The notes under the pieces are model-generated. The model searched no databases. It was given only the letters and a program-made list of their open reading frames with translations, and was not told the DNA's origin. DNA of 64,000 bases from Gamaleyavirus AN24P2, in the sequence record OZ035810.1; one strand, written 5' to 3'. Shown here piece after piece: positions 14,352 to 62,024 of this stretch. The stretch's first letter is position 1. The number at the start of each line of letters is the position of its first letter. The translations under genes were made by a program, and so were the position numbers.

Positions 14352-14415
14352 TTACACTGGCTTACTGTAGAGTAAGCTTCTTATATACGATATAAGTTTG
14401 AACAGGAAACATGCT

Positions 14416-17400
14416 ATGTCAACATTTGACCGTCTGGCAGGTTTCGCAGACAGCATCACTAATGCTAAGCAAGTCGATGTCTCTACTGCTACCTCTCAGA
14501 AGCAAGCTGCACAAGGGCAAAGCCCTTTCCAATTAACCCCAGAGAATGCTTACAATCTCCAAACTGGACGAGTAGGTAATTTAGGAATCGGTGCGTTCGA
14601 ACCAGGTTCCCTCCAAGCTGATTTCACTCAGGCTTCCCCATTAGAAATTCTTAATAAATATGGTAATGAGCAAGGTCTACAGATTCTTAATAGCCGAGCT
14701 AATGCTGCTGATGCTGTACGTCAGGACTTATCTAAACAACGTACTAACGCAGAAGCATTTGGTGATACTCTTTCTGGTGTTGGTCTTGGTGTTGCTAATA
14801 CCCTGGGGGGCATTGCTGCTCTTGGCACAGGTTTGGTCAATGATAATGCCGGGGCATCCATTGCTTCCGGGATGGATTGGTTGAATGAAGGTGTGCACAA
14901 TCTCCAGTCTGATGCACTGAATGTTACCCGTAAGGTTGTTCAGAATCAGAACCAGATTTCTGCTCAAAAGAACCAGAAACTTTACGAACAAGACATCAAA
15001 AATGGGGAGAGCAGCTTGGTTGCCTCCCTGTCTCGCATTGGTCGTGATGCTTTTGATTCTGTTGCTAATACACTTGATAACGGTATGGCTGCTACTGATG
15101 GGCTAAGTGAAGGTGTTGGTTCCCTCTTTACTGGTGGTCCACTTATCCGTGGTGTATCTGCACTCGGCAAAGTAATGGTAGGTGGTGATAAAGCCGTTAA
15201 GGGTATTACCTTAGCTGCTGAGTTAGGTTCTCGTCCTGCACAGGTTGCATTGTCTGCTGGTCGTGTTGCTGCACCTGCTATTGCAATTGGTGGTATGGAA
15301 GCTGGTGGTGCATACCAACAGACTGCTTCTGAAATCATGAAGATGTCACATCAAGAATTAGCAAGTAAGTCTCCTGTTTATCAACAACATATTGCTGATG
15401 GTTTATCTCCTGATGAAGCTCGTCGTCAGACTGCATCTGAAACAGGTATCATTGCTGCTGGCTTAACTGCTCCGGTTGCTGCTGCTACTGGTCCACTGGT
15501 ATCTAAATTTGAACTTAATCCACTTAAGGTAGGTTCACTGGTTGGTGCTGGTTCTAACATGCTGCGTGAAACTGTAGAAGAAGGTATCCAGTCTGGTACT
15601 AGTCAGTTTGCACAGAACAAAGCAATTCAAGGTAATGTAGATGCTAAACGTGACTTGCTTAAAGGTGTTGGTGAACAAGCAGGTCTTGGTGCACTTTACG
15701 GCTTCGGTAGTGCTGGGGTTGCTCAAGCTCCAGGTGCAACTGTTAAAGCTGTTGGTGCTACTGCTGGTCCAGCCCTTCGTACTACTTTAGCCGGTGCTTC
15801 CCTGGTTGGTAGTGCACTAGCAAAAGCTGCATCTCCTCTTACTAACATCCTGGTTCAACGTGGTGAAGAAGTTGCTAAACGAAATGAACAAGCATCCCCT
15901 GTAGCTGATGCTACGGTTAATGCTGCTGCACAGGAAGCTGCTGCTCAGGCAGAACAAGCACAAGCAACTGTACAGGAAGCAGTAGATGCAATGGATATTT
16001 CTCCGGAAGAGAAAGCTGCTGCTACCCAGTATGCTGCTGACTTAACTCAGGCAATGAAGTTTGACCCGGTAGAATTGGAACAAACTAACCCAGCAATCCG
16101 TGAAGCTGTTTCTGGTTCCACTAACCGTGTTGAAGCTATTCAGAAGATGGCTGACCTGGTTAATACTGCTGAGGATCCTAACGTTCAAATGGAAGCTGCA
16201 ATCCAGATGTATGACAATATCATGTCTATGGATAGCTTCATTAACCGTGACCCGGGTGCTCTGGCTAATCTGGAACAAGGTTCTCCTGCTGCTGCGATTG
16301 TAGACCAGTTCTCCGGTCTGATGGCTAACGTACAGAATACTCCGAAGGTACTCCGTGCATTTCGTGCCATCCATTCCATGATTCAGGAACAGGCTGAAGC
16401 GGGTAAATTGAAAGCTACTGAAGAAGCTAACCAAGCTCAGGCAAACAACATTGCTATGGCTGCTGATGTGTCTCCAGAAGTTCTGGATGTAGAATCAGTG
16501 AACATGGTTCTGAAGCACGCAAGTGAAGGTAAGATTACATTAGGGAATCGTCAGCGTGCTGCCCTGCAATCTGCTGCTGCTCTATTGCAAGGAGCACGAG
16601 AATTTGACGCTAAAGCAGAAGAACTGGGCTTACGTCCTCAAGACATTGTTAGTAAACAAATTAAAACCGACGAATCTCGTTCTAATGAAGGCCAGTACTC
16701 TGCGTTGCAACATGCTAAACGCATTCGTTCTGCGTACAACTCTGGTAACTTCGATTTGGCTTCCGCTTATCTCGACGACTTTATGAAGTTCGCCCAGCAC
16801 ATGCAGAATAAGGTCGGAGCGTTGAATGAGCATTTGATTTCTGGGAATGCGGATAAGAATAAGTCTGTCCATTATCAGGCTCTTACTCCCTCCCGTGAAT
16901 GGGTACGTAGTCGTACTGGCCTCGGTGTCAATCCGTATGATACCAAGTCTGTTAAGTTTGCCCAGCAAGTAGGACTGGAGGCCAAAACCGTAGCTGATAT
17001 TGTTAATGCACTTGCTACGGCTTACCCGGAGCTTAATGTTTCTCATGTTAAAGTTACTCCATTAGATTCACGTCTGGACAAGCCTGCTGCCCAGGTGGTT
17101 AAAGAGTTCCGTCAGGGCAATCTTGATGCTGCTCAATCCCAACAGACCAATGAACCAGTGAATCAGGTTGATGAAACTCCTGTTACAAAACAGGAACCAG
17201 TTACCCCTACTGTACAGACTAAACCCTCTGTTAGTGAAGCTGTTAAAACAGAACCTACTATTAAAGAGTCTAAACCACAGTCTGTAAAAGAACCTGAGAA
17301 CCAGTCCGAAAAGCAGGATGCTGCCATCACTAATGAGGATACCACTCAGGAAGTAGCTGAAACTAAAACGGAAATGGAAGCAGTGTTCCCTGTCTATAAC

Positions 17401-20400
17401 AATGACAAGACACCGAGCCAGTTCCTTAAAGCATTTGCTCTGCCGGAAGAACCTAAGACTCGTACCATTGGTTCTGAATCTCCTTTGACTGATGTTAAGC
17501 AAGCACTGTCTTCTGCTGCTCGCTTTGAAGCATTCACACAAAAAGAAAATAACGCTCTCACAAGTGATGTGATGAAACGTTATCAGGACTTACTGGGCTT
17601 TGGTGAAACTCTGAAGACTACTCTTTCTGACCGTCTGGCTAAGTTCCTTGCTAACAAAAATGTTGGTAAACGTTTTGCAGAAGGTACTGAAGCTAACCGT
17701 TGGGTAGGTGGTAAACTGCTGAATATCGTTGAACAAGACGGTGACACCTTTAAGTTCAATGACCAGTTGTTAGAGACTGCTGTACTTGCTGGTCTGCAAT
17801 GGCGACTAACTGCTACACAGAATGCTGCTGTTAAAGACATGAAAGACATAGCTGCTATTACTGGTGTAGAAGCATCCCTGTTACCTGAAGGTATTCTGGC
17901 TGAATTTGAGAATGCTCAGACTCTGGTTGAAGCTACTAGCTCACTGGCTCAAAAGATTGAATCCTACTGGGGTTTGAATCGTAATCCTAATGCACCACTG
18001 GGCTATACCAAGGGTATCCCAATGGCAATGGCTACAGAGATTCTGTCTTCCCTTATTGAGATGGGTGAAGTTAAAGAGTCTATGCTGGATGTGTCTGAAA
18101 TTGACCCAGCCTCCGATAAGACTGTAGGTCTGTACACCATTGAGAAGCTGGATGATAACGATGCCATTAACAATTTCCCTACTGCTATTGAGGAAGCTGT
18201 CCTCGTAGAACCAGAAGAGAAAATGTACTTTGGTGATGATATTCCTTCCGTGGCTCAAACTCAGTTACGTAATCCGGCTGTTAAGAATACCCCTGAACAG
18301 AAAGCTGCTCTTAAAGCAGAACAGGCTACTGAGTTCCGTGTACACATGCCTATGGTTAACTTCTATGAAGCATTAGGTCGTGACAACATTCTGGAACTGA
18401 TGGGTGCTGGTACGCTTAATCCTGAACTACTGAACGTAAACACTGCTAAATCACTGGAAGGTAAGAACCTGTCAGTGTCTATGGCATATGATTCCTTGTT
18501 TGGGGTAATCAATCAGGTTCAGGAACAGGAGAATGGACTGGATACTCCTATTCACTATGGTTATAACATGACCCGTGTAGGTCGTATGCAGATGCTTGGT
18601 AAGAATAACCCACAATCCAGTAAGCTGGTGCGTGAAGCAATTCTGCCAACCTTCTCTACTATTGACTTGAGTAATGAAAACAGCCAAACGTTCTCAGACT
18701 TCCAGTTAGGTCTGGCTCAGGCATTAGGCATCAAGGTACATAACATGTCCCGTGAAGCTATGTCTGAAAAGCTGACTAAAGCTCTGGAAGGTAACCTGAA
18801 ACCTGCTGTTGATATGATGGTTGAGTTTGATAAGTCTGGTCACTTACCAGTTGATGCAGTGGATATTCTGAAGACGTCTCTTGGTGGCGATAAATCCTTC
18901 GTAGCTCTTATGGCTCTTATGGAATATGCCCGTTACCTGAACAGTGATGACCGTGCCAACTTTAATACCCCACTGTACGTTGAAGCCGATGGTGTAACTA
19001 ACGGACCAATCAACGCAATGGTATTAATGACGGGTGGTAAGTTCACTTCAGACTGGGTTAAGAATACTGCTAAAGGTGGTCTGTTCTTTGGTAAAGCTGG
19101 TAAGACTATGAATGAACACCGTTCACAGGATGACAGTGTTGACTTGTATGAAGCATCTACCAACAGTCTGCAACAAGCTCTGAATGAGTTACGTACTACT
19201 TACCGTAACAACGTTCCGGTTATGAACCAGATGAATCATCTCCAAAAGTTAATGGACCTGTTCATTAAAGACTTTAACCTGAACGAAGACGGTACTCTGG
19301 ACCTGAAGCGTGGTATCGCTAAAAACCCACTGACTATTACCATCTATGGTTCCGGTGCTCGTGGTATTGCAGGCAAGATGGTTAGTGCAATTACTGATAC
19401 CATCTATGAACGCTTCAGTGACGTTCTGCAAGCTCGCGCTGCTGACCCTAGCATTTCCCCAGCTATGGCAATGTTTGGTAAAGAGGCTGCGTCTGAGACT
19501 GATGCTCAGGCTATGCTGGATACTTTCCTTACATCTATGGAAGCACTGACTGGTAATGTTCCAGTTATGCGTAAAGGTGAGCTGTCTATTCAACAAGTAG
19601 AAGGTGCTCTGACTGGTAAGTTAGACCCCCAGAAGTTTACTGTATCTGGTAATGCTCTGAAGAACCTGCAAGAGAACATGCTTCACTTGTTCGTTGAACC
19701 AATGCGTACTGGTATTCGAAATACTGTTGGTGAAGGTCTAATGCACTCTACTGAGAACTTGCAGAAGGCTACCCAGATTCAGTCTCTGGTATTGCAAGAC
19801 ATGTTCCAGCAAGCAGTACAGACTAAGCTGGCAGAAAAAGAAAAAGACCCAACATGGAAGAAGGGTGATTTCTTAACTCAGAAAGAACTGAACGAAATCC
19901 AGGAATCATTGTCTCCACTGGCTCCAATGATTGAGACTGGTTCGCAGACTTTCTACATTGCTGGTAGTGAGAATACTGACGTTGCTAACCAAGTACTGGC
20001 TACCAACTTAGATGACCGTATGCGTGTGCCAATGAGCATCTATGCTCCTTCACAGGCAGGTGTTGCAGGTATTCCATTTATGACCATTGGTACTGGCGAT
20101 GGCATGATGATGCAGACCCTTTCTACTATGAAAGGTGCTCCGAAGAATACCCTGAAAATCTTTGATGGTATGAACATTGGTATCAATGACATCACTGATG
20201 CAAGTCGTAAAGCTAACGAGGCTGTATATACTTCCTGGCAGGGGAATCCTATCAAGAATGTTTATGACTCCTTTGCTAAGTTCATGAAGAACGTAGACTT
20301 CAGCAAACTGTCCGATGAAACTAAACAGGCTATCGCTAAGTCTGCTTTGGAATATGACCAGCGTGAGGGTGCTACTGATGCCTTATTACGTGCAGGTGCT

Positions 20401-23400
20401 GAACAGATTGAGCGTAACTTGCGTAACATTGCTCTTGGTGTAGATATTCGCCATAAAGTAATGAACCAGGTACAGACTACTGTTGACCAGATGGCTGCTG
20501 TAGGTGCTCCTTATGTGAACAACGGTAAAATCTCTCTGGAAGGTCTGACTGTAGACCAGCAAGTAGCTAAGCTGAACGAATTGTTTGATGCTGAATTAAA
20601 CAAACGTCGTGATGCAGTACGTGCTGCTAAAGCAGAACCAGTGAAAGAAGTACCAGCAATTGAGCAGGTTGGTCGTGTACTGAAGTCTGGTGTACGTCTG
20701 CTGTCTAATACTGCTATCTCTAAGCTGGCTAAAGAGATGTCTCAGGAACAACAAGCAGTACTGAAAGAAGTACAGAAATCCCCTGCTGCTAAAGACTACA
20801 AGGTTGTCTATGGTACACCTGCCCAACTGGATGCTTACGCTATTGAGAAGAACATTACTCGCCCAGCACCGGAAGATATTGAAGCTGCTGAAGCAGGTAA
20901 TGCATACGGCTGGACTAACTTCGAAGATAAGACCATTTATCTAGTTACCCCTTCCTTAGAAACTCTGGTTCATGAATTGGTACATGCTTCTACTTTTGAA
21001 TCTGTACTGACTCACTATGAAGGTACTCCTAATGAAGCAGTTCAGAACATTGAAGACCTGATGAACCAGTTCCGTGCTCTGGATGTTAAGGATGAATCTC
21101 CGGCAGTACGTGAAGCGTATGCTGATGCACTTAATACCATTAATGGTCACTTGTCCAATGGATTCATTGAGCCATCAATGGCTAAAGCTGCTGCACTTAA
21201 CGAGTACATGGCTTGGGGCTTAACCAACCGTGAACTGATTAGTAAGCAGAAGAAAACCACTGCACTTAAGACTATGGTTCAGGCTGTGTATGAAGCAATC
21301 AAGCGTCTGGTATTTGGGCGTAAGAAAGCACCAGCTAATGCAGATGATATGTTCTCCGGCTTACTGTTTAACTCTGCTGTAGTAATGCGAGGACAAGCTC
21401 CTACTGCTGCTGTAGCTAAAGATACTACCCTGTTCCATAACAAAGCATACGGTGATAATACTCGTCTGGAAGAATTAGGAAAAACCTTCGATAAGTTAAT
21501 TACTGACTACATTGGTTCAGAACCAGTACAACAAGTAATTCGTAAAGGTAAGTTCTCTGATGCAGTAGTGAATGCAACTAAAGTAACCCGTGATGTTCAG
21601 GCTCATGGCTTCGCTATGAATATGCAGGAACAGCGTCTCTTTACTAACATTGTTGCTGCTCTGGCTACTGAGGCTGCTATTAACCCTGCTGCTTTGGCTC
21701 GTGCACAGGAATACTACACGCATGTTACTAAGAACCTGACTGTTGAAGCATTTATGGCTGACCCAGATAGTACTAACCCTGCTGACCGTTATTACGCTCA
21801 ACAGAAGTTCGATACCATCATGGGTGCTAACAATATTGAGTTTGATGCACAGGGACGTTCTTCCTTACTGCCTACCTTTGTTGGGCTGGCAATGGTAAGT
21901 GAAGAAGTACGTAAGGTACTGGCTGATATTCCTGTTATGAAAGCAGATAAGCAATCCGGTAATACAGTTGATGCAATGCTGACTAACATTGGTACTGCTG
22001 CAATGGCTAGTCTGAATGCTCGTGTAGCAGGTGATACCAAAGCTACTAATGTACAGGAAGGTATGGATGCACTGGCTCAAACAATCATGCAGACTAGCCT
22101 TAATGCACAGTCCTTTTATGATTCTGTTGCTACTCCTAGTGGTAATGCTATTGACCGTGCTAACCAGTATCTGGTGGACTCTATTGATGTATTGTCTACC
22201 CGTGCTTTAGAAGGTGCTCGTGAAGTTGCAGCTAATACCAAGAACCCGTTGGTTAAAGGTGCTGCTCATGCTGCACAACTGATTGCTGCTATTGCTACAG
22301 AGAAGAATGGTGAAATCGTAGCCGAAGGAGTTATGGCTGCAATGAACCAGGGTAAGGTATGGCAACCTTTCCATGACCTGGTTAATGACTTAACTGGTCG
22401 TACTAAGAGCAATGCTTCTGTGTATGATTTGATTAAGGCAGTTCGTGCACAGGTACAGGCTGACCGTCAACAATTCCGTGAACATTTGCCTACTACTATC
22501 GCATCTAAGTTCAGCCGTAAGCTGACTAATGATGAGTGGAAAGCAATGCACACTGGCATGGGTAAAACTGACTTGGCTGTCCTGCGTGACACTATGTCTT
22601 TGGCTGAAATCCGTGATTTGCTGTCGGACCAAAAGATTGTTGACCGTGAAGTGAATAAGCTGGAAGCAGATTTGCAGAAGCAAGCTGGACGTAACTGGCC
22701 TCTGATTAGTCGTAAATCTAAGCAACTGGCTCAGTTTATGATTAATGGTACAGTTGGTAATAACTTGCTGCGTAATGCTACTGCAATTTCTCGTTTACTG
22801 GGTGAACGTAAGACTACTAGTTCTATTGTAGATGTAGCTAAACTGGATAAACTGATTACCCTGTATGCACTGGAAGCAATGAGTAATACTGACCGTGAGA
22901 TGCTATCTTCACTGGCTCAAACAGAAGTTGATGGGATTGATTTTGCTACTTCTTACCTGGTTGGTCAGCGTAAAGATGAAATGGCTAAAGCTAAGTCTGA
23001 CATGCGTGCAACCCTGAACCAGTACAAAGGTTACATTCCTGGTGAGACTAAACAAGGTGTTAACCTGATTGTTGCTGAAGACAGTCAATTTGCTGATTTG
23101 ATTGAGAAGTCCTATGTGCGACTGGGTACTTATCAGGGTAGCTCTGCTAATCGTGGTCCAGCACGTAGTTACTACTTTGCACCAGTACAGGCACAGGCTC
23201 CATTCTCACAGGGTATCTTACAGAACGTTCGTAATACTGCTGGTGGTGTAGACCTTGGTACAGGCTTTACGATGGGTACAATGGTAGCTGGTCGTATCAC
23301 TGACAAGCCTTCCGTAGACCGTATCACTAAAGCACTGGCTCGTGGTGAACGTGGTAATGAACCACTGCTGCCTGTGTATGATGACAAAGGTAATGTAGTT

Positions 23401-24774
23401 GCCTATGAGCAATCTATTGACCCTAACATGCTGAAGCACATTGAGGGTGAGAACCATCTTGCTCGTGCAATTGGTGTATGGCGTGGTCGTCAGGTAGAGG
23501 AAGCTAAGGCCCAGCGTTTCAACGATATGCTGATTGAAAATCTGCATAGCATGTACGAGAACGACATTAAAATGTCTGCCTCTAATAAGTCCCAGTATGT
23601 GAACCTTCTTGGTTCTAAACTGGACCCAGTAACTGCTGATGCTCTTAAACTGATGAACACTGAAACACGTCAGAAAGCAGAAAGCCTGTTTGGACCCGGT
23701 GAACTGTGGGTTCGTCGTGATATGCTGAATGATGCACTAGGCTATCGTGCAGCTTCTGTAGGTGATGCCTGGTCTGGCAATTCTCGTTGGTCCCCAGAAA
23801 CACTGGATACCTTCAAGAAAGCTATGTTAGGTGTATTTGGCAACCGTGCTTACAAGTACGTAATGGGTGGTGAGAACCTGGTTCAGAACTTAGTTAAAGA
23901 AGCTAAGACTCTGATTGTAGTTAAGTCAGTAGTTGTACCTGCTGTTAACTTCTTAGCTAACCTTTACCAGATGGTTGGTCGTGGTGTACCTGTTAAGAAC
24001 ATTGCTAAGAGCATTCCACAGAAGACTGCTGAGATTAACCAGTACCTGAAATCTCGTCTGCGTCAGGTAGATGCAGAAGCAGAATTACGAGCAGCTACTA
24101 ATCCGAACCAGATTCGTAAACTTAAAGCTGAGATTCAGTCCATTACTGATAGTCATAAGCGTATGAGTATCTGGCCTCTATTAGAAGCTGGGGAGTTCTC
24201 TTCAATTGCAGATGCTGGTATTGGACGTGATGATATCCTGATTACTGAGGGTAAACTCCATGAATACATGGATAAGCTGGCTGATAAGTTACCTAAGTCA
24301 GTACGTACTGCTGGTCGTTATGCACTTATCACTAAGGATACTGCTTTGTTCCAGGGTATCCAGAAAACGGTTGAGTACTCTGACTTTATCGCTAAAGCAA
24401 TCATCTATGATGACTTAACTCAGCGTAAAGGTAAGACACGTGAAGAAGCACTTGGACGTGTAACTGAAGAGTTCATTAACTATGACCGTCTGCCGGGACG
24501 TTTCCGTGGCTATATGGAAAGTGTTGGTCTTATGTGGTTCTACAACTTTAAGATTCGTTCTGCAAAAGTTGCAGTGTCCATGATTCGTAATAACCCGGTC
24601 CATGCAGCAATGGCGATGTTGGCTCCAACTCCTACCATGTTTGGTAACGTTGGCTTACCTATTCAGGACAACATCTTTAGCATTGCTGCTAAGGATAGTC
24701 TGGATTACTCTTGGGGCTTTGGACAAGGGCTTCGTGCTCACAACCTGAACCCTTGGATGAACCTGGTAAACTAA
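14416..24774 (+). CDS. virion-encapsidated RNA polymerase (giant vRNAP)
   Basis: Single ORF of about 10.3 kb; track start 14398 is TTG, first ATG at 14416 preceded by AGGAAA; a protein of this size in this position is diagnostic of N4-like phages. Confidence 0.85.
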   Translation: MSTFDRLAGFADSITNAKQVDVSTATSQKQAAQGQSPFQLTPENAYNLQTGRVGNLGIGAFEPGSLQADFTQASPLEILNKYGNEQGLQILNSRANAADAVRQDLSKQRTNAEAFGDTLSGVGLGVANTLGGIAALGTGLVNDNAGASIASGMDWLNEGVHNLQSDALNVTRKVVQNQNQISAQKNQKLYEQDIKNGESSLVASLSRIGRDAFDSVANTLDNGMAATDGLSEGVGSLFTGGPLIRGVSALGKVMVGGDKAVKGITLAAELGSRPAQVALSAGRVAAPAIAIGGMEAGGAYQQTASEIMKMSHQELASKSPVYQQHIADGLSPDEARRQTASETGIIAAGLTAPVAAATGPLVSKFELNPLKVGSLVGAGSNMLRETVEEGIQSGTSQFAQNKAIQGNVDAKRDLLKGVGEQAGLGALYGFGSAGVAQAPGATVKAVGATAGPALRTTLAGASLVGSALAKAASPLTNILVQRGEEVAKRNEQASPVADATVNAAAQEAAAQAEQAQATVQEAVDAMDISPEEKAAATQYAADLTQAMKFDPVELEQTNPAIREAVSGSTNRVEAIQKMADLVNTAEDPNVQMEAAIQMYDNIMSMDSFINRDPGALANLEQGSPAAAIVDQFSGLMANVQNTPKVLRAFRAIHSMIQEQAEAGKLKATEEANQAQANNIAMAADVSPEVLDVESVNMVLKHASEGKITLGNRQRAALQSAAALLQGAREFDAKAEELGLRPQDIVSKQIKTDESRSNEGQYSALQHAKRIRSAYNSGNFDLASAYLDDFMKFAQHMQNKVGALNEHLISGNADKNKSVHYQALTPSREWVRSRTGLGVNPYDTKSVKFAQQVGLEAKTVADIVNALATAYPELNVSHVKVTPLDSRLDKPAAQVVKEFRQGNLDAAQSQQTNEPVNQVDETPVTKQEPVTPTVQTKPSVSEAVKTEPTIKESKPQSVKEPENQSEKQDAAITNEDTTQEVAETKTEMEAVFPVYNNDKTPSQFLKAFALPEEPKTRTIGSESPLTDVKQALSSAARFEAFTQKENNALTSDVMKRYQDLLGFGETLKTTLSDRLAKFLANKNVGKRFAEGTEANRWVGGKLLNIVEQDGDTFKFNDQLLETAVLAGLQWRLTATQNAAVKDMKDIAAITGVEASLLPEGILAEFENAQTLVEATSSLAQKIESYWGLNRNPNAPLGYTKGIPMAMATEILSSLIEMGEVKESMLDVSEIDPASDKTVGLYTIEKLDDNDAINNFPTAIEEAVLVEPEEKMYFGDDIPSVAQTQLRNPAVKNTPEQKAALKAEQATEFRVHMPMVNFYEALGRDNILELMGAGTLNPELLNVNTAKSLEGKNLSVSMAYDSLFGVINQVQEQENGLDTPIHYGYNMTRVGRMQMLGKNNPQSSKLVREAILPTFSTIDLSNENSQTFSDFQLGLAQALGIKVHNMSREAMSEKLTKALEGNLKPAVDMMVEFDKSGHLPVDAVDILKTSLGGDKSFVALMALMEYARYLNSDDRANFNTPLYVEADGVTNGPINAMVLMTGGKFTSDWVKNTAKGGLFFGKAGKTMNEHRSQDDSVDLYEASTNSLQQALNELRTTYRNNVPVMNQMNHLQKLMDLFIKDFNLNEDGTLDLKRGIAKNPLTITIYGSGARGIAGKMVSAITDTIYERFSDVLQARAADPSISPAMAMFGKEAASETDAQAMLDTFLTSMEALTGNVPVMRKGELSIQQVEGALTGKLDPQKFTVSGNALKNLQENMLHLFVEPMRTGIRNTVGEGLMHSTENLQKATQIQSLVLQDMFQQAVQTKLAEKEKDPTWKKGDFLTQKELNEIQESLSPLAPMIETGSQTFYIAGSENTDVANQVLATNLDDRMRVPMSIYAPSQAGVAGIPFMTIGTGDGMMMQTLSTMKGAPKNTLKIFDGMNIGINDITDASRKANEAVYTSWQGNPIKNVYDSFAKFMKNVDFSKLSDETKQAIAKSALEYDQREGATDALLRAGAEQIERNLRNIALGVDIRHKVMNQVQTTVDQMAAVGAPYVNNGKISLEGLTVDQQVAKLNELFDAELNKRRDAVRAAKAEPVKEVPAIEQVGRVLKSGVRLLSNTAISKLAKEMSQEQQAVLKEVQKSPAAKDYKVVYGTPAQLDAYAIEKNITRPAPEDIEAAEAGNAYGWTNFEDKTIYLVTPSLETLVHELVHASTFESVLTHYEGTPNEAVQNIEDLMNQFRALDVKDESPAVREAYADALNTINGHLSNGFIEPSMAKAAALNEYMAWGLTNRELISKQKKTTALKTMVQAVYEAIKRLVFGRKKAPANADDMFSGLLFNSAVVMRGQAPTAAVAKDTTLFHNKAYGDNTRLEELGKTFDKLITDYIGSEPVQQVIRKGKFSDAVVNATKVTRDVQAHGFAMNMQEQRLFTNIVAALATEAAINPAALARAQEYYTHVTKNLTVEAFMADPDSTNPADRYYAQQKFDTIMGANNIEFDAQGRSSLLPTFVGLAMVSEEVRKVLADIPVMKADKQSGNTVDAMLTNIGTAAMASLNARVAGDTKATNVQEGMDALAQTIMQTSLNAQSFYDSVATPSGNAIDRANQYLVDSIDVLSTRALEGAREVAANTKNPLVKGAAHAAQLIAAIATEKNGEIVAEGVMAAMNQGKVWQPFHDLVNDLTGRTKSNASVYDLIKAVRAQVQADRQQFREHLPTTIASKFSRKLTNDEWKAMHTGMGKTDLAVLRDTMSLAEIRDLLSDQKIVDREVNKLEADLQKQAGRNWPLISRKSKQLAQFMINGTVGNNLLRNATAISRLLGERKTTSSIVDVAKLDKLITLYALEAMSNTDREMLSSLAQTEVDGIDFATSYLVGQRKDEMAKAKSDMRATLNQYKGYIPGETKQGVNLIVAEDSQFADLIEKSYVRLGTYQGSSANRGPARSYYFAPVQAQAPFSQGILQNVRNTAGGVDLGTGFTMGTMVAGRITDKPSVDRITKALARGERGNEPLLPVYDDKGNVVAYEQSIDPNMLKHIEGENHLARAIGVWRGRQVEEAKAQRFNDMLIENLHSMYENDIKMSASNKSQYVNLLGSKLDPVTADALKLMNTETRQKAESLFGPGELWVRRDMLNDALGYRAASVGDAWSGNSRWSPETLDTFKKAMLGVFGNRAYKYVMGGENLVQNLVKEAKTLIVVKSVVVPAVNFLANLYQMVGRGVPVKNIAKSIPQKTAEINQYLKSRLRQVDAEAELRAATNPNQIRKLKAEIQSITDSHKRMSIWPLLEAGEFSSIADAGIGRDDILITEGKLHEYMDKLADKLPKSVRTAGRYALITKDTALFQGIQKTVEYSDFIAKAIIYDDLTQRKGKTREEALGRVTEEFINYDRLPGRFRGYMESVGLMWFYNFKIRSAKVAVSMIRNNPVHAAMAMLAPTPTMFGNVGLPIQDNIFSIAAKDSLDYSWGFGQGLRAHNLNPWMNLVN

Positions 24775-26077: not shown

Positions 26078-26083
26078 TATTAT

Positions 26084-26159
26084 GGTTACCCAGGCAGGAT
26101 TCGAACCTGCGTCCTAGTTGGTTTACTAGTGGGGCTTTACCACTAAGCCTACTGGGTAT
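26084..26159 (-). tRNA. tRNA-like gene with aberrant anticodon arm
   Basis: 7-bp acceptor TACCCAG/CTGGGTA, D-arm GGCT-TAGTGGTAA-AGCC, T-arm GCAGG-TTCGAAT-CCTGC, encoded CCA, 76 nt; anticodon arm folds only as CTAGT/ACTAG with a 6-nt loop. Confidence 0.4.
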
Positions 26160-56181: not shown

Positions 56182-56234
56182 CGCATATTCTCCTAAATGT
56201 GATTAATAACCAAAAGCTGCGGAGCAGCTATTAC

Positions 56235-60207: not shown

Positions 60208-60588
60208 TTAGAAAGTCAGTTTACGAGCATATTTATTCTCGTCTGCTGGGATGTCAGCAACCTCTGCTTTCACACGACGAAGTTGAACTTGCAGGTTAAT
60301 GATACCTTCTTCACCTGGTTCCAGGTTCTGAGCATACTCAATTAACTGTTCCAGCAAGTCATTCTGTGCACAACGCATAGCACGGAAGTCAGCATTGCTG
60401 CTATTAGTAGGCAGTGGCTCCTGAGTATCCAGTGGAATACCAGTAGGCAGAGAGATGAACTTCTCTTCTTCAGAGCCTTCATTAGCTACATAACCAATGT
60501 TCAACCAGAACTGAGCTTTTGGTTTATCAGTTTTAGCAGTGGTAGCAGCAGCGTTAGATTGACCGAAAGTGAATTTTTGAATAGACAT
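60208..60588 (-). CDS. hypothetical early protein
   Basis: ORF 60208..60687; hydrophobic extension dropped in favour of internal ATG ([10 protein letters not shown]...). Confidence 0.4.
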
Positions 60589-60722
60589 TTTGTACTCTCC
60601 AGATAAATGATTATTTGATTGATGGGTTTGTCTGTCGGTGACTAAACCCAAGAAAAGACTTAAGATTTCAATGATTAGTGGATGCATTTACATCATCCAT
60701 AAGACGCGGAGCGTCCTGGTTT

Positions 60723-61172: not shown

Positions 61173-61496
61173 TTAGTCTTTAGTCAGGATGTCAATTACT
61201 TTTGAATATTCTGCGTTATAGATACGAGCGTTCTCAGAATCCTTACAGAATTCCTCAATACTTTTCTTACGCAGAGTCTCAGTCATAGCTGTTTCTTCAG
61301 CTAATTTGTTTACGAATGTATGCATTTCTAATTTAGTACGAATGGCTTGTTTCTCTGCCATAGTACTTACATATGAGTTAAGCATACCAACTGCTTTAGT
61401 AGCAGTACCAAATGTATCTGCAACAGTAGTAGCAGCAGAGTTAACAGTACCAAGTAAAGTTCCTGCGGTCATACGTACAGTAGCTTGAGTAGTCAT
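61173..61496 (-). CDS. hypothetical early protein
   Basis: 107 aa ORF downstream of a structured 200-bp intergenic region. Confidence 0.45.
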   Translation of the reverse strand: MTTQATVRMTAGTLLGTVNSAATTVADTFGTATKAVGMLNSYVSTMAEKQAIRTKLEMHTFVNKLAEETAMTETLRKKSIEEFCKDSENARIYNAEYSKVIDILTKD

Positions 61497-61697
61497 GATG
61501 ATAGCTCCAATAGTTGATGATAGGACGACATGTCCATAACATGCGGAGCATGTGTAACGTGTAGGGTGGGGTAGGGTAGCGGCTACACCGTCAACATACC
61601 GGGGGGGCTAGTTGAGTGTAATGGTGTAGCCTCAGCCACACCACTGTAGCTGTACATAGCTATGACCAAAATGGTATGCAAAAATATGATAGCTATC

Positions 61698-62024
61698 CTA
61701 CTTATAAGCAGTTAAATAGGAGGAGGGAATCTGAGAGAGGATGTAGTCATAGTAATAGCAGTATGCTTCACTATTAGTAGAATTTATGGGCATACCTATA
61801 TAATCAAATACCCACAAACAGAAGTGGTTGAGCTCGTGAATAAGTGTATGTAAATGTTCACTAAAGATACCGATTAATACACGACTACCTGAGTAAGCAG
61901 TATACCCTCTACAACCTGCCAAGTCTGGTTCATGCCCTTTAAGTTTCTTGTACTTTTTGATGAAGGCATCCCGATCGAATACTACCTCTAACTGTACTGG
62001 GTAGGGGGATGTGTTTAGTTTCAT
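61698..62024 (-). CDS. small HExxH-motif protein (putative mini metallopeptidase)
   Basis: 108 aa; HTLIHELNHF contains HExxH. Confidence 0.4.
   Translation of the reverse strand: MKLNTSPYPVQLEVVFDRDAFIKKYKKLKGHEPDLAGCRGYTAYSGSRVLIGIFSEHLHTLIHELNHFCLWVFDYIGMPINSTNSEAYCYYYDYILSQIPSSYLTAYK

Follow-up and report, generated by a model that had tools for sequence, protein, structure and literature searches.

Putative chromosome terminus, terminal boxes and early promoter P1 in a non-coding region of the N4-like phage Gamaleyavirus AN24P2

Why does a short non-coding gap between two minus-strand open reading frames (ORFs) of Gamaleyavirus AN24P2 (record OZ035810.1) carry so many G-tracts and repeats? 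The gap lies at positions 61497–61697 of the window, by which we mean the whole 64,000-nt stretch of DNA that was analysed, and the ORF list places it between 61173–61496 and 61698–62024, both on the minus strand. An original prediction made from the letters alone read it as a structured early intergenic region, whose G-rich and repeated elements might serve as a hairpin promoter for the virion RNA polymerase (vRNAP) or as a regulatory element. A 2-kb query around the region matches AN24P2 at 100% identity (OZ035740.1), window positions being record positions less 7225, and window and record share their last base. The relatives are N4-like coliphages of the G7C group, and comparison with them points to a different identity. 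With a probability of roughly 0.8, 61497–61697 is the left-end control module of an N4-like chromosome, made up of the terminus, a set of terminal boxes, the first early promoter (P1) and the leader of gp1. It poses as an ordinary intergenic spacer as a result of a circularly collapsed assembly. The region is indeed non-coding, as had been said, but it is not a plain early intergenic region: it appears to be a junction, because the known ends of G7C, N4, IME11 and Mimir124 map inside it, and its right-hand 58 nt would belong to the right genome end while the rest opens the terminal repeat.

The elements that first drew attention to the region are all present. On the plus strand, the G-tract GGGTGGGGTAGGGTAGCGG occupies 61564–61582, a run of seven G at 61601–61607 is the sole G or C run of at least seven in the window, and the hairpin sequence GTAG-CGG-CTAC lies at 61576–61586. 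The 9-bp inverted repeat is likewise real (GGCTACACC at 61581–61589 and GGTGTAGCC at 61623–61631), with arms 33 nt apart rather than the claimed ~36. The plus strand had been named as the template for early genes, and this is borne out by the ORFs around the region, all of which lie on the minus strand. Singly, the listed features exceed chance by a modest margin only. Of perfect 9-mer inverted-repeat seeds whose loop is at most 60 nt, 31 occur in the window and ~16 in shuffles (~0.05 expected per 200 nt), four tracts of at least three G within 50 nt occur twice among 421 tract starts on the plus strand of the window, and single-strand folding of the region gives z-scores of -3.1 (plus strand) and -2.5 (minus strand). 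The features are nonetheless not chance, because the same blocks are invariant from AN24P2 to N4, KP8, the Achromobacter phage Axy13 and the Pseudomonas phage LIT1. Conservation of the motifs across relatives, to which the original prediction had looked, holds for the G7 and G-tract blocks in these phages but not for GTAG-CGG-CTAC.

The promoter part of the module consists of three features.

61540..61552, plus (template) strand: hairpin of the predicted vRNAP early promoter P1, CATGC-GGA-GCATG, positions -5 to -17 (direct repeats, strict motif, orthologs)
61535, minus strand: predicted start of the gp1 mRNA, with RNA beginning GGACAUGUCGUCC (rules of PMC4496689)
61497..61534, minus strand: 5′ untranslated region of gp1, a 39-nt leader to the ATG at 61496 (near-invariant in relatives)

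A repeat search over the last 8 kb, run with no structural filter, returned three direct copies of CCAWAA-N3-GCGGAGC on the plus strand (56210, 60697 and 61534), each corresponding to a 5-bp stem with a GGA loop. A strict promoter motif (C, four bases, a triplet, GC-GNA-GC and the triplet's complement) has only three matches on both strands of the window (128 kb), all of them on the plus strand and upstream of early ORFs, against a chance expectation of ~0.1 matches as estimated from the information content of the pattern. Applied to N4, the same motif finds the published P1 (107), P2 (576) and P3 (4565); it also finds equivalent sites in G7C, St11Ph5 and KP8, and the orthologous sites of KP8 carry the annotation ‘early promoter’. 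vRNAP recognizes A or G at -11, G at -10 and -8, and C at +1, the last of these being the start site, eight nucleotides downstream from -8 (PMC4496689). The AN24P2 site presents G at -11 (61546), -10 (61545) and -8 (61543) and C at +1 (61535), with ATAA as the spacer, and its hairpin, whose stem and loop fall within the 5–7 bp and 3 nt of this promoter class, appears in both predicted single-strand folds. Its stem differs from that of N4, G7C and KP8 by two compensatory pairs (CATGC/GCATG versus GTTGC/GCAAC), and the hairpin stands ~104 bp from the predicted left end, compared with 102–108 bp in N4, G7C, St11Ph5 and KP8. By homology, CATGC-GGA-GCATG at 61540–61552 is a canonical N4-type vRNAP promoter orthologous to N4 P1, and the gp1 mRNA probably starts at 61535, where the template has C at +1. 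A Shine-Dalgarno sequence, GGAG, lies at 61508–61505 upstream of the gp1 ATG.

The claim that the region holds a vRNAP hairpin promoter on the template strand was thus sound, but the hairpin concerned is CATGC-GGA-GCATG, which the original prediction did not list. The elements it did list would have to act as promoters themselves, an idea that has in its favor hairpin-capable sequences on the template strand of the early region, in a phage whose vRNAP uses hairpin promoters. We regard it as hardly tenable. The stem of GTAG-CGG-CTAC has 4 bp where at least 5 are needed, its CGG loop places C at -10 and its 5′ arm GTAG places A at -8, both of which need G (PMC4496689). The element is missing from G7C, N4, KP8 and Jgk1 and is found in the closest relatives only, as GTAG-TGG-CTAC, while the 9-bp repeat encloses a loop of 33 nt where a promoter loop has 3 nt. 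A canonical promoter, equal base for base to the N4 P1 type, sits 24 nt beyond GTAG-CGG-CTAC, and the stretch that parts this promoter from the chromosome end, upstream of the predicted start, is where the G-tract, the G7 run and the 9-bp repeat are found.

The first 13 nt of the predicted P1 transcript (61522–61535, minus strand) may form a stem-loop, GGAC-AUGUC-GUCC. A 5′ stem-loop may likewise form at the same position in N4, KP8, Axy13 and the lineages L081 and L082, and the stem seems to covary, with GGG...CCC in Axy13 and L082 and GGC...GCC in L081. The P2 transcript, described below, opens with GGAUG...CAUCC.

Homology to known ends defines three further features.

61638..61640, minus strand: predicted physical left terminus of virion DNA, being the terminal repeat boundary and the concatemer-junction cut (homology to known ends)
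61238..61639, minus strand: predicted direct terminal repeat of ~402 bp (homology to IME11 and Mimir124)
61640..61697, minus strand: predicted non-coding tail that closes the unique right end ahead of the cut, with two ATAGCTAT palindromes and the motif CTACAGTGGT beside the cut

Position 1 of G7C, which has an annotated 1160-bp terminal repeat, and position 1 of N4 both align to 61638. The records of St11Ph5, PD38, PhAPEC7, SP5M, ShWW44, 24-32N, PBM-2 and KP8 begin within a few bases of 61638–61640. In IME11, which is 94% identical to AN24P2 in this region, the termini were determined from read pile-ups, and one starts at GTGGCTGGGGCTACACC, which corresponds to 61639 with one base on either side (PMC3896407). 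Read starts at GTGGCTGGGGCTACACC map to 61639 and 61640, and those at TGGCTGGGG map to 61638; the second terminus, 401 bp away, corresponds to 61238 (PMC3896407). Mimir124 has an annotated direct terminal repeat of 403 bp that starts at the same boundary, and several records begin at window positions 61229–61251. We predict on this basis that the left end of the packaged chromosome lies at 61638–61640.

Several observations accompany the two ends of the predicted repeat. By homology to IME11 and Mimir124, its far boundary (61238) falls inside the gp1 ORF (61173–61496), and the right-end copy would therefore carry P1 and a truncated gp1. The 1160-bp repeat of G7C ends ~85 nt before P2. In IME11 the ragged end, marked by three read starts 1 nt apart, is the early-gene end, and the other end is sharp (PMC3896407). 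This is opposite to N4 as reported, with its one unique left end and its heterogeneous right end; the sides named in PMC3896407 follow the orientation of its own record.

Upstream of the cut, the ATAGCTAT palindromes lie at 61656–61663 and 61689–61696, 33 nt apart, and the cut-proximal one is kept as GATAGCTATGTA in most relatives. As far as the cut, relatives keep blocks reading TAATATTTTTGCAT, GATAGCTATGTA and YAGTGGT. A YAGT(R) motif and a palindrome are conserved on this side of it, and sequence conservation extends to both sides. A comparison of left and right cut contexts in the window, G7C, LIT1, LUZ7 and N4 for a shared terminase cleavage motif gave resemblances (CTGTAAGGATT versus CTGTAGTGGTG up to the cut) and nothing convincing. 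A Chi-like TGGTGG at the end was considered as protection against RecBCD and rejected; only 6 of 8 positions match, and the sequence is on the strand that an enzyme coming in from this end would not recognize.

What, then, are the G-rich elements that lie between the terminus and P1? On the minus strand they read as two boxes, TA-C7-GGTA for the G7 run and CCTACCCCACC for the G-tract, which are accompanied by repeated short motifs.

61597..61610, minus strand: box 1, TAG-C7-GGTA, the complement of the G7 run (invariant C-run and GGT(A) in alignments)
61564..61576, minus strand: box 2, CCCTACCCCACCC, the complement of the G-tract GGGTGGGGTAGGG (CCTACCCC invariant in eight lineages)
61581..61631, minus strand: 9-bp inverted repeat enclosing box 1, GGCTACACC at 61631–61623 and GGTGTAGCC at 61589–61581 (repeat search, folds)
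61552..61628, minus strand: five copies of TACAC, four direct (61628–61624, 61620–61616, 61563–61559 and 61556–61552) and one inverted as GTGTA (61588–61584)

Box 1 occurs once in the window, as does the exact match to box 2. Two alignments trace the conservation, one covering the junction in 23 relatives and the other 15 distinct leader sequences, and they show a mosaic of invariant blocks parted by variable stretches. The invariant blocks are GGGGCTACACC(C)TTACAC, a C-run followed by GGT, and CTACCCTACCCCACC; the C-run corresponds to G7 of the plus strand and CCCTACCCCACC to the G-tract. Box 1 starts 29–35 nt from every left end defined by experiment or by record, namely those of N4, G7C, St11Ph5, KP8, LIT1, PEV2, LUZ7 and Axy13, and the boxes are present at left ends in three Schitoviridae subfamilies and in several uncultivated lineages. 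LIT1, whose ends were determined by run-off sequencing, has TTATCCCCCCCGGTACC at 26–42 and CTACCTACCCCACCTTGT further inward, and LUZ7 has TACTCCCCCCCGGTGG at 25–40, with box 1 only. At the annotated repeat start of Axy13, four copies of GTACAC are joined by TACCCCCCCGGTA at 31–43 and CCCTACCCCC, followed by a GACGC-TCC-GCGTC promoter.

A scan of IMG/VR extends this distribution. A first scan with box 2 and TTACAC was too unspecific and returned many unrelated contigs. The bipartite pattern of C7GGT, a gap of 15–45 nt and TACCCCACC matches 31 stretches, against 4 for the same pattern reversed. The hits include uncultivated lineages that are N4-like by homologs of gp1, gp2, gp14 or an RNAPII subunit, and for two of the uncultivated box-bearing lineages no phage record is similar at the DNA level. 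Most hits have a hairpin promoter 9–13 nt beyond box 2. We therefore consider, at a little under an even chance, that TA-C7+-GGTA and CCTACCCC(ACC), located 29–35 and ~65–80 nt from the left terminus, constitute an undescribed, family-wide end element of the Schitoviridae. On the same reading, and with the same reserve, the element would include short iterated motifs around the boxes, with the first vRNAP promoter just inside, and would be conserved across subfamilies without other nucleotide similarity. A literature search on the box strings returned unrelated papers only and no description of the boxes or of their family-wide conservation, with the N4 features possibly in Ohmori et al. 1988; neither the KP8 paper nor a family review discusses ends or promoters. 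The family-wide boxes thus appear undescribed, while promoter and terminus are already known for N4, G7C, IME11 and KP8, and AN24P2 is a new instance in an unannotated record.

The homopolymer of box 1 (61601–61607) ranges from C6 to C13 among close relatives (L034, L043, L046, L064, L067 and L079), a variation that may be real slippage or homopolymer sequencing error. One further scan hit, L093 (IMGVR_UViG_3300012667_000477, a 38-kb contig), has both boxes followed by CACAC repeats at 1376–1427, flanked by a 145-aa ORF on one side and by a large terminase gene (Pfam Terminase_3 / Terminase_6N) on the other, and no N4-like proteins were found in the part of the contig examined. It was set aside as evidence for a link between boxes and packaging, as it may be one of the ~4 chance hits expected.

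A G-quadruplex on the template strand, or an i-motif on the C-rich strand, could regulate P1 or protect the end, and the plus strand does hold four tracts of at least three G within 50 nt, a density seen twice in the window, with G-richness conserved through boxes 1 and 2. The tracts, however, run G3-T-G4-TA-G3 and are then separated by 24 nt from G7, beyond the canonical loop length of at most 7 nt; the first tract is AGG rather than GGG in most relatives, and what is conserved is exact sequence, beyond G-richness. A quadruplex with longer loops may still be able to form, but we judge a quadruplex or i-motif very improbable.

Box 1 is also framed by the 9-bp inverted repeat, inside which lies an inner repeat, TCAAC/GTTGA, and which could form a cruciform or hairpin. 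Other inverted repeats flank box 1 in LUZ7 (AATCTGG/CCAGATT), LIT1 (TCCAAA/TTTGGA), G7C (GTTAACTACC/GGTA-T-GTTGAC) and Jgk1 (TGACTACC/GGTA-T-GTCA). A shuffle test of the stem around box 1 in 16 lineages gave a Fisher combined p of 1.8e-6, and tests of the inner hairpin in single lineages gave p values from 0.008 to 1.0. The TACAC motif, one copy of which is the left arm of the 9-bp repeat, occurs five times in 105 nt, where 0.2 copies would be expected (Poisson P = 2e-6), and nowhere in the 64 kb is it clustered more densely. Iterated motifs occupy matching places elsewhere: GTACAC four times in Axy13, CACAC in L081 and L082, TACAC in L095, and also iterations of TCAAC.

Could the fold itself be what matters? 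One possibility is that the template strand, by means of the inverted repeat, folds over at its 3′ end and so primes DNA synthesis, or that the repeat marks a replication start at the end. PMC3896407, a secondary source here that cites Ohmori et al., attributes fold-back priming to N4 ends, and the plus strand, whose 3′ end is the left terminus, has a long predicted stem-loop (dG -19.1 kcal/mol, z = -3.1). Set against this, the last 7–9 nt of that 3′ end are unpaired or weakly paired in the predicted fold and would thus make a poor primer; the long stem is missing at the ends of the KP8 type and of L081, L082 and L083; and the invariant parts are sequences, namely the boxes, and not pairings. 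Fold-back is accordingly improbable in our estimation. A second possibility is that the stem-loop acts as a terminator or insulator, halting read-through from right-end genes into the terminal repeat on concatemers and at the right end, as might be expected of a stem-loop directly 3′ of the last right-end gene and on its strand. No T-run follows the stem, however, the terminator scan of the region was empty and no Rfam match was found, and the fixed distance of the element is to the DNA end and not to the upstream stop codon, all of which makes a terminator scarcely credible.

Sequence boxes at a constant distance from the cut are consistent with a pac- or cos-like site, in that a conserved sequence stands at a fixed distance from the cut in eight phages, with conservation on both sides of it. 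Our leading proposal, a tentative one held at somewhat worse than even odds, is that the boxes are the terminase recognition site for left-end formation. It is ranked first because of the constant cut distance, the conservation on both sides of the cut and the iterated short motifs. The literature searched for experimental binding or cleavage by an N4-like terminase, or for a requirement of the boxes in packaging, returned no such report.

The boxes and repeats might instead act at infection, by holding the entering DNA end through vRNAP domains, ejection proteins or a membrane complex. With the end held, the first few hundred base pairs would become a topologically closed domain, in which gyrase could extrude the P1 hairpin even ~100 bp from an otherwise free end; in a variant of the idea, the boxes might load vRNAP onto the G-rich template strand. 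Early transcription depends on gyrase even on a linear genome, so that the DNA must be topologically constrained while it is injected, and the leading ~500 bp go in before the rest (PMC4496689). P1 is only ~100 bp from the end, and therefore something must hold that end; the boxes accompany P1 in every lineage; and in N4 virions the DNA end is located in the portal barrel (PMC13434306). Two observations count against an infection role. The distance from box 2 to P1 is variable, with insertions of 27–100 nt in U1G, PD205 and L046 and a spacing of 55 nt in LIT1, and conservation crosses the cut into DNA that lies at the other end of the packaged molecule, a pattern for which an enzyme that cuts concatemers would account more readily. 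We consider an infection role unlikely, though worth keeping in view beside terminase recognition.

These elements suggest an order of events along the minus strand. The stretch 61697–61640 would be the non-coding tail of the right end, with packaged DNA beginning at 61638–61640. The following ~100 bp would form a leader that the P1 transcript does not cover, holding box 1, box 2, the five TACAC copies and the inverted repeat, and then come the P1 hairpin (61540–61552), the start at 61535, the 39-nt leader and gp1. The boxes would be cis signals that define or handle the chromosome end: the packaging terminase would recognize them and cut at a fixed 29–35 nt to make the left end, and a further role of the boxes could be to keep that end in place within the portal or ejection complex. 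By homology to N4, the left end would enter the cell first, and DNA gyrase and host SSB would extrude the template-strand P1 hairpin. Co-injected vRNAP would read -11G, -10G and -8G and initiate at the C eight bases downstream, and transcription from P1 would yield gp1 mRNA and help draw the DNA in.

Several points weigh against this reading and moderate it. The start site and the terminus of AN24P2 rest on homology, the assembly holds one copy of the repeat, so the length of ~402 bp is deduced, and the 1160 bp of G7C show that the far boundary is variable. Across 15 promoter instances, three of five stem pairs are changed on both sides and every instance is paired, a count that holds partly by construction in that most of the instances were gathered by a regular expression requiring complementarity; the P1 orthologs in an unfiltered alignment still show CATGC/GCATG against GTTGC/GCAAC. 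Spacing from box 2 to P1 ranges from 9 to ~130 nt, and LUZ7 is without box 2. The stem around box 1 is not universal, since several lineages have only a small TACC/GGTA core and N4 is without the inner stem, and folding of the leader alone is unremarkable (z of -0.3 to -1.7 in five lineages). A terminase role for the boxes, as opposed to one in ejection, transcription or replication, is an inference. Two refinements follow. The stem is absent in some lineages, and therefore the sequence boxes are the universal feature, with the stem common but not obligatory. Insertions of 27–100 nt between box 2 and P1 are found in U1G (L073, 75–101), PD205 (L063), PE007 (L067) and L046 (~2010–2110), and the spacing from box to promoter is thus unconstrained. 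These insertions hold small hairpins of their own, such as GTGTGC-TCT-GCACAC and ACGAAC-TTCG-TTCGT.

The genes and promoters around the region fit the same arrangement.

61173..61496, minus strand: gp1, first early gene, 107 aa (67% identity to N4 gp1, E = 7e-52)
61698..62024, minus strand: last right-end gene, gp71.2-like, 108 aa (ORF list; position as G7C gp71.2)
60698..60715, plus strand: predicted vRNAP promoter P2, GACGC-GGA-GCGTC at 60703–60715, predicted start 60698 (repeat and strict motif)
56211..56228, plus strand: predicted vRNAP promoter P3, GCTGC-GGA-GCAGC at 56216–56228, predicted start 56211 (repeat and strict motif)
14398..24774, plus strand: virion RNA polymerase gene, 3458 aa (PDB N4 vRNAP chains, E = 0)

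In G7C, gp1 lies at 145–468 of the record, and gp71.2 sits immediately upstream of the annotated right terminal repeat, matching ORF 61698–62024; in the assembled AN24P2 record, the gp71.2-like gene abuts the left terminal repeat. P2 is of a type identical to G7C P2 at 1245, and its predicted start is 11 nt before the ATG of a 159-aa ORF (60208–60687). The hairpin of P3 is the same as that of N4 P3 at 4565, and, as far as sequence can tell, P1, P2 and P3 together reproduce the three-promoter layout of N4. The 3458-aa vRNAP is 67% identical to N4 gp50, and the residues that contact the promoter are conserved (K114, R119, W129, K268, K849, K850, D901 and R904), with D in place of K267.

Searches for other kinds of element in 61497–61697 were negative. 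Rfam at the gathering threshold gave no match there, and at E <= 1 its sole hit in the region was a chance miRNA of 16 bits; a tRNA search of the same interval found none. A sigma-70 promoter scan of the region yielded nothing exceeding the shuffled expectation, and an intrinsic-terminator scan of either strand, also set against shuffled expectation, yielded no terminator-like site. The small ORFs at 61441–61551 and 61583–61681 are not accepted as genes; the first begins within the P1 hairpin, upstream of the transcription start, and its homologs annotated in Mimir124 and phi1_146050 look spurious. Public records of L064 (Klebsiella phage vB_Kpl_K57alpha1.2), L062 (Mimir124, 204–314) and L070 (344–466) hold further dubious annotations, among them a pseudo ‘DNA primase’ coding sequence across the junction and short coding sequences that begin inside the P1 hairpin. 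Elsewhere in the window, beside a normal tRNA-Ile gene, ARAGORN reports a second tRNA at 26083–26158 (minus strand) of unsettled identity, with a two-base ‘anticodon’; Rfam scores it as a tRNA at 42.8 bits.

For annotation, P1 and the chromosome end should be marked in AN24P2, and the record re-oriented to start at 61638–61640 on the minus strand. The terminal boxes, conserved among phages of E. coli, Klebsiella, Achromobacter and Pseudomonas and in uncultivated lineages, offer a practical marker of the true left end in collapsed Schitoviridae assemblies. If the family-wide end element is real, it would be a recognition site for the protein that creates or holds the first-injected DNA end, and it would bear on how the linear N4 genome is topologically constrained for gyrase activation of a promoter 100 bp from an end. 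The boxes also provide a concrete, mutable target for studying fixed-end formation and the constraint of the entering end in supercoil-dependent transcription.

Among known systems, the closest counterparts are the N4-like left termini and short direct repeats of N4, G7C and IME11 (PMC3896407), with which AN24P2 shares the terminal sequence (T/G)GGC(T/A)G(G/A)GGCTACACC. Its predicted repeat of ~400 bp is like those of IME11, Mimir124, N4 and Axy13, whereas that of G7C is longer at 1160 bp. Unlike N4-like records that start at the terminus, the AN24P2 record has the end in its interior, as the assembly is collapsed and permuted. The promoters likewise follow N4 P1–P3 (Haynes & Rothman-Denes 1985, Glucksmann et al. 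1992, Gleghorn et al. 2008, reviewed in PMC4496689) in having a 5-bp stem and a 3-nt loop on the template strand. AN24P2 P1 and N4 P1 have in common -11G (a purine by the N4 rule), -10G, -9C, -8G, a four-base A/T spacer and +1C, as well as their place, ahead of gp1 and ~104 bp inside the left end; the leftmost ~8 kb hold three promoters in both phages, and the vRNAP contact residues are shared too. They differ in the stem (CATGC/GCATG in AN24P2, GTTGC/GCAAC in N4), the loop (GGA, GAA) and the spacer (ATAA, AAAA), and the start of N4 P1 was mapped experimentally (PMC4496689), whereas that of AN24P2 P1 is predicted.

More distant parallels exist in T7-like phages, whose ends resemble that of AN24P2 in a short fixed direct terminal repeat, a first ~50 bp that includes iterated motifs and a C/G-run palindrome, a phage RNA polymerase promoter near the end, and a left end that enters first. 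The T7-like terminal repeat reportedly holds arrays of short repeats and signals for processing of the concatemer junction, as Dunn & Studier 1983 and later T3/T7 packaging work are reported to have found. The two systems have no sequence similarity; the polymerase of AN24P2 and the N4 family is carried in the virion and reads a DNA hairpin, and the packaging role of the boxes is a predicted one. In lambda (cosB/cosN) and SPP1 (pacL/pacR), the sites bound by terminase are iterated, and its cut falls at a fixed distance from them. In contrast to these sites, the N4-family boxes lie inside the repeat and hence also ~400 bp from the right end. The likeness, read from sequence alone, consists in conserved boxes and short iterons beside a cut at constant distance, with both sides of the cut conserved.

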